From positions 154,256,001 to 154,320,000 of the forward strand of contig OZ024742.1 of the NCBI GenBank assembly GCA_964016885.1: DNA of 64,000 nt, in the 5' to 3' direction. The notes beneath the pieces were generated by a model. That model did no database searches. It was given only the letters and a program-made list of their open reading frames with translations, and was not told the DNA's origin. This document shows positions 34,672 through 57,980 of this stretch, piece after piece (position 1 is the stretch's first letter; each line of letters begins with the position of its first letter). This DNA comes from Eledone cirrhosa. Taxonomy: Eukaryota. The position numbers and the translations under genes are program-made.

Positions 34672-36800
34672 GTAATAATAATAAATTTGAAGACTAAAAT
34701 CCAAAGAGGGCTGGATAAGGATAAATATATATCAAATATATAAGAACCGTAGAGCAAATATTTATTAAAATAACAGATTAGAGATTAAGCAGAGAATCGC
34801 TGCTTTCACCCTTAACGGGATCTTCTGAAACTAACAAGGTCAATCTGTGAACGCAGGAGAGAATACTTCAAAAAACGTTCCTCGGAATGGATAAGGTAGC
34901 ATATACAGAGTACGAGAATAGACCTTGAAGAAATAGATTCCGACACATTATATGGTATAACCCATCATATAATATGGAGGTGGCCACACCATTACCTAAT
35001 CTCTTTCTCTCCATTATTATGAAGCATTTCCCCCTACACATAAATATAGTAACATTTTTAATAGAAATACTATTAAAATTTCTCACTCTACGACTCCTAA
35101 CCTTGCACATAACATCACAGCTTCACATTTAGCTAAACTACCTAGCCGTGGGAATACGTGCAACCATGTAGTTAGTACTAACTGTAATTGTAGGAATAGG
35201 GTTGACTGCCCCCTATCCGGGAAATGTCTCTCTAGTAACATTGTCTACAAATGTAAGGTTGAAACACCCACGTCCCGTAGGGCCTACATAGAGTTTACCG
35301 TCAATAGATTCAAGTAGCGTATTTTCATGCATACACATTCTTTTCGTTAGGCTTTAAGAAGTAATATGACGTCACTTTCAGCTTATATCTGGAGTCTAAA
35401 AGACAACCACACCCAATATATGTTACACTGGGAGATCCTAGCTAGGGCTAGATCGTATAACGAAATAAAAGACCTTGTGACCTCTGCGCCGCTGAGGCCC
35501 TGGAAATACTCTACGACAAAGTCCACATCTTAAACAAAAAATCTTAGGCAAGTTCGGCTTGTAAACGTAAATTGCACAAAACTTTCCTGTATTACAGCCC
35601 CACATTATAGCCTAACGGATAGTACGACCTATACGCGGATATTTTACGTCTTGATGTGGTAGCTAGGTATATGTTATGTTTATACCATTACTTATTTGTA
35701 TAGGTAAGTATATATTACCTGTATATTTTCTGAAGGTACGTATAATTTCTCGTATGTATATTTGCTTGTATATGTTATGGTGTATATATTATATATTCTG
35801 GTACATATGCTTTTGGTTATGTGTGTACGTGAGTTCTGCGTTTGTGTGAGCATGCGAGGTCGTACGTATGTAGGGGTGTGTAAATGTGTAATTTGTGTTT
35901 TGGTTGACGTATGTCTCCGAATATATGTGTATTTACATGTAGGTATGTGTGTGCGCTTGTTATATGCGTATTTATTTATTTATATACGTTTATTTAATTA
36001 TATGTATATACGCACACACACACACACACACACACACACACACACACACACACACACACACACACACACACACACACACACACACACACACACACACTTA
36101 TATACATTTTTTTAATATGCATTTTAAAGTGTACTTGGTGTATACATTCGTATGCGTGCGGGTACAGGCGTTGCGTGGGTTTGGTAAGTGCGTGAGGGTT
36201 TTTCTTTTGTGTACGTGCGTGTATTTTTTTACCTATGGCGAGTGTTTTCGCGTATGCTTGTGTATGTACGTTTATGGATGCGTGTATGTATTTATTTAAT
36301 TTCAATTACTTCTGTATTTTATTTACTTTATTCTTAACTCTGAAGCCGAGAATCCTTCGGTTTCCTAGTTAGAATTCTTGTCTACGAGTTCAGTTATACC
36401 ATTTATGTGGTTTTGTATTTGCGTGCAATTGTTCTCCCCGCTCCACATATGACGCATTTTCTCCGTTTTTGTCCGTTCATTGCCAGAGAACGTCTCCATG
36501 AACCACCCAATAGAATATTAGTCTACGACTTCTTTTATACCATAAACGTGGTTTTGTGTTGGTGTGTAATTGCTTTTCAACGCTCCAAATAATGACGTAT
36601 TATATTCGTGTTTTCCCGTTCTTTGCCAGGGAACGTTTCCACGAACCAAAAGATCGTCTTGCTGTCTTCCTCTGGTTGCAACGTTTTTTGAAATATTCAC
36701 TTCTGCGTTCACAGATTGACTTTGTTAGTTTCAGAAGATCCCGTTAAGGGTGAAAACAGCGATTATTTGCTTAAACTTTAACTTGTTATTTTTATAAATA
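34672..36800 (+). mobile_element. Naiad-type PLE: inverted 5' pLTR (34672-34880), linker/GIY-YIG relic (34880-35620), 3' pLTR (~36400-36800)
   Basis: Homologous to 49360-50160 (WYNPSY, CNCRNRVDCPLSGKC, YI..T). pLTR copies in opposite orientation, with HHR-like motifs at 34782-34832 (minus) and 36727-36777 (plus). Confidence 0.85.
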
Positions 36801-39800
36801 AATATATATATATATATATATATATAAAAATAAATAAATAAATAAATATATATATATATATTGAAACGTTAATCCGTTTTAAAACATAAAAGACAATTAA
36901 TGTAGAAATGTCCATATATCAATTAGTGAAAGTTCTCTCTTACAGGATTAGTTTCGTTTCGTGTTGGGCATGAGGCAACCGTCATCCGGTGACTCATGAT
37001 GAAATATGAAATGAGACGTTTAGAAGACATTTTAGTCGATCGGGATAAATGAGGAGAATGGATGTGGGATAAATATATTATTGAATTGTTTGGATGTTAG
37101 GAAAATATGTTGTGAAATTATGTAGAAGATTCATAGGAATAAAGTACATTTTCTATTCCGCGTTTACACAATTATCTGCCTAGAAACCCGAGAGAACTTG
37201 AACTCAAGTGTCATCTATCTGATACATTTACTACAGGGCTATTTCAAATACAGACGCACACTCACTCACACACACACACACACACACACACACACACACA
37301 CACACACACACACACACACACACACACACACACACAGGCGCATATATATATATATATATAAATATATATATATATATATATATATATATATATATATATA
37401 TATATATATATATATATATATATATATATATATATATATTTATATATATATACATAAATATATAATTGCATACATACTTACACTTTTCCAATTCCATTTC
37501 CTTATATAAATGTATATATATATATGTTTGCGTATGTGTGTGCGTATGTGTGCTTATGTAGGTGTGACGGTGTTCGTGTGTGTATGTGTGTTCGTGTGTG
37601 TGTGTGTGTGTGTGCGTGTGTGTGTGCGTGTGTGTGTGTGTGTGTGTGTGTGTGTGTGTATGTGTGTGTGTGTGTGTGTGTGTGTGTGTGTTTGTGCGTT
37701 ATTCTGTTTGTGTATGTGAAGAAAGTAGTTAGGTACGTTAGATGAAAGGCTATTCTACACAGGAAAACAAAGCTGGCACGTCTACACGATTGAAAAGCAA
37801 GTTGCTGAAATTTGTTGAAGTTGACATTAAGCCTTTGCTCTAAATTGAGAAATGACACCCGAATTACAGAGTGTTTCGTGTTTTAATGAGATTTCTCAAA
37901 AGAAAATAAACGGTGCTGACGTTCATTGTATCACTGCGAACTTTGAGCGGATTTCACTTCACGATTGAGTGAATTACCACCATAAAAACATCAATTCTGA
38001 AATGAAGTCTACTATTTAAGGAAATTACTTATCATTGCTAAGTATAAAACTAAATACAAGTAGAAAAGTTAAAAGTTTATGGTTAGTGACTACAAGGATT
38101 GCTTGCTTAGTTGCTATATGCGATTTGAGTGCTTCTTGACGCATCGGTCATCAGTGTGTGATGATGTCTGCTCCAAGAATTTGTACTTAAAATTGAGAAT
38201 GAAAGAGTTGAAAAACATGACACAAAGTGTCAATGACTTCGCTAATGGAGTTCCATTATTTTATTGGCATTCCTCAAGCAGTGAACCATTCACATTTTCC
38301 CCGAAGCTGCAAATAATCGATAGAAATAGTTGAGAAGAATATATAATAAACGCATCTCGGTAAATGGTAAAACTAATTTTGATGTTTATTTTTATATAAT
38401 AATCAATGGTGTATAAGTTGGTACTTTTACATATTTTAATATCTTCAAAAAATAAACTGATATATACCTATAATCTTCTTCAATGATATTTCTTAATAAT
38501 AGTTGTATCTCACATTTTGAGAAAGACGTCTGATTTCTGGTCACAATACATAGTGAGTTCAATTTCTGTCAAGGTCTACTTTGCCTTCCACCCTTTCTTG
38601 GTCGATAAACGATCAACCAGTTCAGTACCGGCGACGGTTGTTTCTCTCGAACAAATTCTCTAAAGTTGGACCAGGATTAAAATACCAGACTCGTTGTGTG
38701 ACGGGTGATTTGTCTTACGACTACACCAGGGTTTAAATGGGCCCTTTCCAACAACGTCCCTCATATGTTCGGGCAACACAGGACCATGATATCGTTTCAA
38801 TTCTAGCTGAAGCGAGATATATTTAGATTCCCCAATGATTCTTTTTATATATCTTCATATAAAGCACTACTGTAACCAAACCTTAAATACAGCAACACAT
38901 ACATGCATGTATTGTTGTATGTATACAAACACACATGCGCGTCGCACACGCACGCATACACACACACACACACACACACACACACACACACACACACACA
39001 CACACACACACACACATATATATATATATATATATATATATATATATATATATATATATATATAATTGTTTCTACTTTAGGCACAAGGCCAGCAATTACC
39101 CAGTGCATTACTGGTACTTTATATTAATATATAATATTAATTAATTAGCACCCTCGTATTTATATTTAATGTATGAGTTGGTTTATTTTTGTTTGTGTAT
39201 AGAAATGCGAATGATAACAATCAAATTTTTGAAGCTAATTTAAGACGATTTGGCAGTGTAATAACATTTCACATCTTATAAATATGAGTTCAGGTGAGGT
39301 AAGCAAATACATGAGCTATACACCTACAATGGCGTATAGCCACGTTTTCTTTGGCCAAATCCGATTTCAAATCAGACTAAGCAGTACCAGAAATAGTAAG
39401 TTTCGGCAATAACATTGATAATTGCAATTTCATACATTCAAATCAAATATATGTATATGTATATATATGAAGGGGAAGGGGTGGTGTAAGGAGAACATAT
39501 ATAATCATATGCTTAAATAAGCTTGTTTTGCAAATACCTAGTTCCGTGTTCGACCCCTCTGCTAAGCAGAACCTACTGTGGTTGACCGATACCTTATGAG
39601 TGGAATTTGTTTGAAGTAAAATGTGCTGAAAACTGTTCTATATATACTTATATTTAGCCAAAATAAAAAGCTTTAATTCATATAATTACGATTGTTTCTA
39701 ACAGGCACAGAAATGGGAATAAATAATTCTAAATCATAGTATCAAACCTCAAACGACTGTGTAAAATCATTGCATCTACAATAATTGCATGTACAATTAT

Positions 39801-40514
39801 ATCCACCAGAAACAGAAACGTTTGGCAAAATTATTAAAATTCTAAAAGGAAATAATTATAGTACACATCTATTCATAATATTATTCTTCAGATTCAGATT
39901 TATATCCACAAGTAGCACACTAATCATAAAAAAAATGAATATGATCTTCAACGACAATAAAATGGCCAATTGAATATTTCTACCAACTAAATACACCTCA
40001 ACATATTTTGACAATGTTCACTGCAATACTTATTACTGAATATTACCTTTAGATATAACACAAACATCCAAGGATCACACCAACAACTCAGAACATCAAA
40101 AACAATATACTGTCACACATAACAGAATGAGAATTCCACACAAACACATACACAAATCTGAATACTAGGATTTGTAATCTGACGCTACTCACCACTAAGA
40201 GTCGACATAAAAGACACAGCAAATCCTCCCATATGGTGCACTAACAAATTTAGAGCGTCTGAGATACAATATTTTATGAATAGAATGAAACAACAATGGC
40301 ATAAATGCTATAAAGTAGTCTCATTATTATAAAGTACAAAAATAAAAAATATACGAGTTAAATCAAATGAACTAACTGTTGTGTAACCACTTTTACCAAA
40401 CTCGTCCCATGGACTGAGTGCTCTACCACTACGGATATTACCTTCCAGTGTTCTACCTCTCTCGCTCTGTACACACACACACACATATATATATATAAAA
40501 ACATCTACCAATAA

Positions 40515-57470: not shown

Positions 57471-57689
57471 TACGCGCGCCTGCGTGCGTGCGTGTGTGTG
57501 TATGTGGGTGGGTATGTGGGTGTGTGTATATTTATGTGTGCGTGCGTATGTATGTGTATGTCCGTCGGGGCATTCGTATGTACTGGCCTAAATCTTCACT
57601 ATTTACTTTTACTATTTTAATAACCTCTGTCATTTTCGTTTTCAATTTTATTTACATCATTCTTAAACTCCACTGGAAATCATTCTGTT

Positions 57690-57980
57690 ATTTTAAATAG
57701 AATATTAGTCTAACGACTCCTTTTATACCATAAACTTGGTCTTGTCTTTGCATGAAATTGTTCTTCTCAGTCCACATAACGACGTATTAGCCTCGCTTTT
57801 TTTCCGTTCATTACCAGGGAAACGTCTTCACGAATCAAAATATCGTCTTCCTGTTTTCCTTCGGTTGCAACGTTTCTCAAAATATTTATTTCTGCGTTCA
57901 CAGATTATTTTTTTTAGTTTCAGAAGTTAATGTTGAAAGCAGCGAATCTTTGTTTAAACTTTAACCTGTTCTTATAACAT
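57690..57980 (+). mobile_element. Diverged solo pLTR of the 48868-50340 family (HHR stem II deleted)
   Basis: Matches 36510-36790. Confidence 0.7.

Follow-up and report, generated by a model that had tools for sequence, protein, structure and literature searches.

A fixed A at position 4 of the hammerhead-shaped motif of an abundant Hydra-clade Penelope-like element in Eledone cirrhosa

What should be made of a hammerhead-shaped motif whose core carries the same non-canonical nucleotide copy after copy? This question is raised by a stretch of 64,000 nucleotides (nt) of Eledone cirrhosa DNA (contig OZ024742.1, positions 154,256,001 to 154,320,000; hereafter, the window), in which a preliminary description had noted four copies of a motif with the core CAGAAGA, i.e., with A instead of the U expected at position 4 (U4A), and a fifth, damaged one. 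The motif belongs to a Penelope-like element (PLE) family, for which we use the working label F1; F2, F3, F4, F5, F10, F11, and F13 are other families of the Hydra clade of PLEs, and F1b is a composite including an older F1 pseudo-long terminal repeat (pLTR). Whether PLE hammerheads must cut at all for the element to move is treated as an open question in PMC8557442. What stands out here is an A4 fixed in a highly abundant PLE family, beside families with C4 and U9. The F1 and F1b features of the window are the following:

34673..34879, minus strand: inverted F1 3' end with the long tail, ending 114 nt beyond the predicted cut
34782..34832, minus strand: A4 hammerhead-shaped motif of F1, within an insertion's inverted 5' piece; 3' strand of stem I decayed
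34890..36800, plus strand: 5'-truncated F1 body with the end of the reverse transcriptase (RT), CxCX5C linker, GIY-YIG endonuclease (disrupted by stops and frameshifts), 3' untranslated region (UTR), and pLTR
36727..36777, plus strand: A4 motif belonging to that insertion, with G15.2 changed to A
48870..50342, plus strand: F1 insertion with an inverted tail (48870-48945), a body with an internal deletion (48944-50171), and a pLTR reaching 50342, followed by (TA)n
50268..50318, plus strand: A4 motif with AGUUU/AAACU stem I, CAGAAGA, stem II of U.U and three C-G pairs, GAAA, and stem III; predicted CUU cut after 50313
51368..51639, plus strand: 5'-truncated F1 pLTR with its tail reaching an assembly gap; A4 motif at 51511-51561
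57030..57984, plus strand: F1b, a non-coding composite of about 1 kb with a fixed left end and an older F1 pLTR
57916-57960, plus strand: F1b motif, A4 retained, stem II broken

The 16-mer AGTTTCAGAAGATCCC has four exact matches in the window, against a mean of 0.01 in 100 shuffles, and these are the four copies noted previously at 34782 (minus strand), 36727, 50268, and 51511 (plus strand). The consensus then quoted for them describes 50268 and 51511 well but not 36727, which reads GAAA-ACAG, nor 34782, which has AATCT in stem I; these two are the inverted and direct parts of a single insertion, each with its private stem defect. The fifth copy, at 57916, does read CAGAAG, but calling it a decayed copy is only partly right, as most of the decay is inherited from a separately amplified composite, the private changes being limited to a deletion of 6 nt and a single one in stem III. 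In F1, three stems surround the core in the type I topology, open at stem I, and their pairs covary between families: stem I has 5 base pairs (bp) and an 8-bp extension past a 7-nt bulge, stem II consists of a U.U followed by three C-G pairs, and stem III has 4-5 bp. Six positions of the type I core C3 U4 G5 A6 N7 G8 A9 match, the failing one being U4, and G12 A13 A14 A15.1, U16.1, and H17 are all present (GAAA...CUU). Folding energy is no better than that of shuffled sequences (z from +0.66 to -1.36), so that minimum free energy folding did not discriminate. The F1 motif is a true hammerhead homologue whose fixed, non-canonical core fails strict membership at U4; by its position and anatomy, it would work like a PLE hammerhead, with cleavage as a prediction.

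We counted exact 31-mer matches across the genome (3.0 gigabases) with position 4 left variable: A4 is found in 15,358 of 15,496 matches (99.1%), the others having U (49), G (53), or C (36), where G4 and C4 together make 89 rows whose split was counted by hand; two additional U4 matches carry G7. The U4 copies look like mutations acquired after insertion: they are not more frequent than those with G4, and ten U4 loci that we inspected lie in mixed backgrounds. All 56 F1 copies from 32 loci chosen by open reading frame (ORF) or by chance, with the motif ignored, also have A4. The earlier proposal that U4A is ancestral to the spread of the family is borne out, the genome-wide consensus being A4 rather than U4 and the stems keeping their pairing between families. 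Contigs under eight other organism labels contain near-identical copies with only A at position 4 (coverage is thin in some runs); these copies show zero stem covariation and add little. When a U4 sister family with the stem III of F1 was sought, the first 100 listed of 497 matches consisted of F1 copies that are rearranged and of background. When non-U4 families lacking a U ahead of the core were sought (616 matches versus 162 in the control), the first 100 were rare F2, F5, and F13 variants and background.

The same 56 copies bear on selection when a source-lineage variant is defined as one common to at least three loci. Such shared variants affect 18 of the 169 positions upstream but none of the 51 that make up core and stems (Fisher p 0.007, or 0.016 with CpG left out); outside an internal repeat, the figures are 5/62 and 0/51 (p 0.046); private variant rates are similar in the motif and upstream. 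This lack of shared changes in the motif suggests selection.

Which element carries the motif? A complete tandem unit of 3,259 nt (L041) is made of motif, ATG, ORF, 3' UTR, motif, and (TA)n, the ATG lying about 155 nt downstream of the predicted cut. The intact product of 709 amino acids (aa; L076:1501-3627) is encoded by a single ORF with the RT first and the GIY-YIG endonuclease last, and it includes RLRWR (R where the RWK type has K), SDKTG, a CNCRNRADC linker, and CDLC...E...N...CKH. The translation, thus, has a C-terminal GIY-YIG, DKT, CxCX5C, and CxxC and CxH flanking a conserved E and N; these agree with the Hydra-clade definition of PMC8557442, where Naiads are defined by an N-terminal GIY-YIG endonuclease before the RT and by DKG changed to DKA. 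F1 shares with Naiads the (TA)n targets, the pLTRs, and the inverted and tandem insertions, whereas Naiads lack a canonical hammerhead (PMC8557442). With its endonuclease at the C-terminus and SDKTG rather than DKA, the element is not the Naiad it had been taken for: by ORF layout and motifs, F1 is a Hydra-clade PLE. The call is based on these features, the trees covering only unnamed relatives. The closest database proteins (P0001-P0003) are 47-57% identical. F1 3' ends adjoin (TA)n, matching the Hydra-clade insertion target, and the canonical hammerhead near the 3' end, a general Hydra trait rather than part of the clade definition, is in place with A4. A Pfam search of two ORFs, including the intact one, gave zero matches at E 0.1, so that the Hydra clade is easily overlooked in annotation. 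Among 71 scored F1 protein matches, 29 are without internal stop, which marks the family as young and recently active. The F1 3' UTR (L041, about 3830-4100) contains, upstream of the motif, an internal tandem duplication of about 130 nt that is 78% identical.

Is F1 alone in departing from the canonical core? Other Hydra families of the window provide comparisons:

24494..24540, plus strand: minimal hammerhead-shaped motif of F2, a C4 family; the window copy has A4 and U7
28971..29077, minus strand: F3 C4 motif with long stem II, left arm
30185..30291, plus strand: F3 C4 motif with long stem II, right arm
61519..61612, plus strand: F10 U3-U4-A8 motif, a U4 comparison case; inverted partner at 58155-58248, minus strand
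62265..62383, minus strand: F11 canonical CUGAUGA motif with long stem II, a U4 comparison case, 975 nt downstream of a Hydra endonuclease

The CCGAAGA (U4C) reported in both arms of 28913-30349 is present. It opens a complete hammerhead-shaped motif in which the stem II region spans 81 nt, located 740-790 nt behind the F3 endonuclease; F3 has 1,282 matches, with C4 in 100 of the 100 listed. The element at 24493, put forward as an unrelated second A4 case, does not stand: the CAGATGA that begins at 24498 arose privately in a decayed copy of F2, for which the first 100 listed of 582 matches give C 96, T 3, and A 1, the A being this very copy. F2 is linked to a Hydra ORF in L177 and L171. F13 (C 92, T 5, G 2, and A 1 among the first 100 listed of its 459 matches) has a stem II that covaries with that of F2, and its ORF link rests on L191. 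Position-4 variants, thus, recur in unrelated families, as had been suggested. F4 has U4 in the 29 rows reaching the core (four truncated rows were dropped) and U9 in 28, a letter that the search query itself included; F5, F11, and F10 (U3-A8) retain U4, from one or two copies each. Across the ten tabulated families, deviations are limited to position 4 (F1, F2, F3, F13) and position 9 (F4), each of these five families having exactly one core change (A4 in F1; C4 in F2, F3, and F13; U9 in F4); all ten retain, in their consensus or an intact copy, G5, A6, the 3-8 pair, GAAA, U16.1, and H17. Stems I-III pair with different letters across families that are mostly 30-50% identical in protein (69% for F3/F4).

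The trees, midpoint-rooted and built on partial ORFs, group F1 with F10 (98/96) and F11 with F3+F4 (100/98) for the endonuclease (its F13b row, without link to the F13 motif, was ignored), and F3 with F4 (100/99), apart from F2, for the RT. F10, a U4 family, is the nearest F1 relative found. Because A4 and C4 families interleave with U4 families, core changes probably arose repeatedly, which is the simpler reading of these protein trees. Going one step further, Hydra elements may here have retuned their core repeatedly and independently (U4A, U4C at least twice, A9U) with catalysis kept, a proposal that we regard as tentative and on the doubtful side. Metagenome relatives at about 40% identity have U4, the motif being visible in five of seven loci. 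A U-A pair closes stem I beside the core in F1, F2, F3, and F13, but also in the U4 families F4 and F11; no strict covariation of this closing pair with position 4 or 7 was seen.

How far do these motifs depart from published hammerheads? File S2 of PMC8557442 gives hammerheads for 25 of 27 Hydra families, all with U4 and GUH, with U.U at 10.1/11.1 in 14/25 and U17 in 10/25; the search demanded CUGA, and just two Hydra families had no match. The F1 architecture is, hence, typical of the clade, while A4 and CUU are derived. Indeed, F1 shares with these motifs the type I fold near the 3' end of a (TA)n-targeting element, the U.U, and U17; it differs by A4 (U4 in the published ones), G15.2-C16.2 (C15.2-G16.2), a stem III that is not palindromic and has a larger loop, and the extended stem I. 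The minimal PLE hammerheads of PMC4209133 are similarly located in pLTRs, with different covarying stems between families; their palindromic stem III is also found in F2, F13, F3, F4, and F5, and their U3-A8 variant in F10. They are slow in vitro, and the accessible portion of that paper names no position-4 or -9 family variants; F1 could fold as a monomer. A natural U4C is already in print: in a viroid, it lowers in vitro activity with infectivity still possible (PMC3088659, citing Ambros and Flores 1998). This viroid motif and the Aedes candidate cCgauga of the same paper likewise depart from U4 with the remaining core kept; they are isolated C variants, in contrast to the present fixed changes, A4 in over 15,000 copies of one family and C4 in three others. 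U10.1.U11.1 is reported there as tolerated. We found no published U4A hammerhead in the accessible literature, although position-4 PLE variants could already be in print elsewhere; PMC13725137, PMC6765202, PMC7229834, PMC11014351, and bioRxiv 10.64898/2026.07.22.740005 provided context only.

Directly supported are the position of the motif, the family-wide A4, the intact remaining core, the clade, and the recurring single core changes in sister families. From there, we would give an even chance to the prediction that the F1 motif still cleaves itself, at a reduced rate, and is maintained by selection. In favour of it, A4 became fixed in a family that is young and rich in open ORFs, source lineages lack shared changes in the motif, stem pairing and the remaining core persist across divergent families, and A4 and C4 families interleave with U4 ones; moreover, the viroid U4C retains enough activity for infectivity, U10.1.U11.1 is tolerated, and PLE hammerheads are slow in vitro. 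Transcription would start in the upstream pLTR and read through tandem units; a minority of transcripts would be cut at CUU, yielding RNA of unit length, RNA circles, or a 5' end fit for translation some 155 nt upstream of the ATG, and most would remain uncut as template for reverse transcription. Changes at positions 4 and 9 would lower the cleavage rate with the catalytic guanines kept.

Several results weigh against such a slowed ribozyme. In the selection sample, loops are as invariant as stems (0/74 positions), so the constraint bears on the region, where it may act on sequence, and not on the fold specifically. The deep mutational scan of PMC9901934 reports low activity for all single mutants of the CUGA region. 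Synthesised natural C4 (Aedes) and U9 (Xanthomonas phage) variants come from organisms that are both among the inactive examples of PMC3088659 (Table S1, Fig. S7), although the pairing of these constructs with that panel is our own and canonical Aedes monomers were inactive too. F1 moreover combines its A4 with CUU where 25/25 published Hydra motifs have GUH. Of 35 endonuclease ends from which our ORF-anchored scan started, only 16 were followed by a motif (two of these motifs belonging to a neighbour), and known motifs were missed; as the motif scans demanded G5, A6, and GAAA, families altered there could be missed.

Copy ends bear on both sides. F1 copies end 29 or 114 nt beyond the predicted cut, so the template must be continuous across it, which counts for the slowed ribozyme. 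On the opposing side, 30 ORF-bearing loci divide into 14 that traverse the upstream motif, 4 whose start lies 6-86 nt ahead of the cut, and 12 that start after it; no 5' end coincides with the predicted cut (0/30), and 18 loci run across it. Published Hydra motifs likewise have sequence after the cut (PMC8557442), so the absence of starts at this point is not particular to A4. Both F1 3' ends are AT-rich and lie beside (TA)n, with AATAAA just before the first (29 nt) end; examples in the window are 34673-34879, 13711-13801, and 24000-24092, and tail-only fragments occur too.

The invariant loops, the low activity of CUGA changes, and the insertions, all of which need sequence on either side of the cut and none of which starts there, would also fit a motif that does not cut, its fold or sequence being kept for recognition by the RT or endonuclease, 3'-end formation, an internal promoter, or the initiation of translation. 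Functions other than cleavage are left open by Cervera and De la Pena (PMC4209133), and PMC13725137 discusses a part played by the fold in translation. We consider this unlikely, since the residues unchanged across very divergent families are those of chemistry rather than shape (G5, G8, G12, H17), and since, in the viral case of PMC13725137, translation was lost upon a point mutation of a catalytic residue; moreover, stem II is dispensable in cis if the PLE machinery is what mobilises F1b.

F1b is itself a difficulty for the slowed ribozyme, having spread with a broken stem II. This composite (2,711 first-look candidates) has a pLTR about 82% identical to that of F1; the motif is missing in 3 of 30 loci, and the remaining 27 show A4 in 26, a broken stem II in 26, and a clear A3 in 7. 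Amplification of branches that had lost stem II, C3, or the whole motif would suit a relic, in which A4 killed the ribozyme in a master copy and hitchhiked through the expansion, further decay having yet to build up. Naiads, too, spread without canonical hammerheads, which their authors suggest may parasitise PLEs (PMC8557442), and our selection test is modest, with 32 loci. This is, nevertheless, distinctly improbable: A4 is already present in F1b, about 18% diverged from today's F1, and must be old, yet F1 has gained no second core or stem change since the split, and each of the five variant families has exactly one core change. The fixed CTAG-type end of F1b resembles what we take to be a Helitron terminus, in which case the captured F1 pLTR may be a passenger. 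F1b branches (57030-57984; L132-L161) are abundant and have differing right ends.

Could A4, on the contrary, be compensated to near-full activity by a stable non-palindromic stem III and a bulged, extended stem I able to dock on loop II? F1 has a stem III of 4-5 bp and, past the bulge, an 8-bp stem I extension, and Perreault et al. proposed that tertiary contacts offset core variants (PMC3088659). The extension is known from F1 alone, the C4 families not having been searched for one; the fold does not exceed shuffled sequences in stability, the U-turn includes a contact of U4 with the A6-N7 phosphate (PMC3088659), and the read-through templates that the copy ends imply would be lost if cleavage were fast, all of which make near-full activity very improbable.

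One genome, thus, offers a natural series of RNAs of 50-110 nt: a very successful A4 family, three C4 families, one U9 family, and canonical relatives. Cleavage by the variants would mean that the core accepted as invariant is drawn too strictly and that censuses of ribozymes undercount; without cleavage, one of the most successful PLE families here keeps the sequence of a dead ribozyme constrained, implying a second function. Should the repeated, independent retuning of the core with catalysis kept hold, F1 would be a natural functional U4A hammerhead and part of a rate-tuned class invisible to CUGANGA searches, and PLE families reported without hammerheads could hide such variants.

General searches of the window were of little help: an Rfam covariance-model scan (E up to 5) showed no hammerhead in the 150 matches listed of 298, microsatellite matches dominating, and the repeat search was dominated by (TA)n. 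At least six Hydra-like families have pieces in the window, where one Hydra-like endonuclease terminates at 17150 (minus strand) and several canonical CUGANGA motifs lie at 16103-18133, 28269/28408, 10956, and 56462, some in inverted PLE-like pairs. U3-A8 core-variant motifs occur in other repeats (window 31158, minus strand; L039:1238; L008:2864), and a further CCGAUGA motif, with C4, a long stem II, and a palindromic stem III, was seen in one copy at L182:2089 on the plus strand (the same as L125:124).

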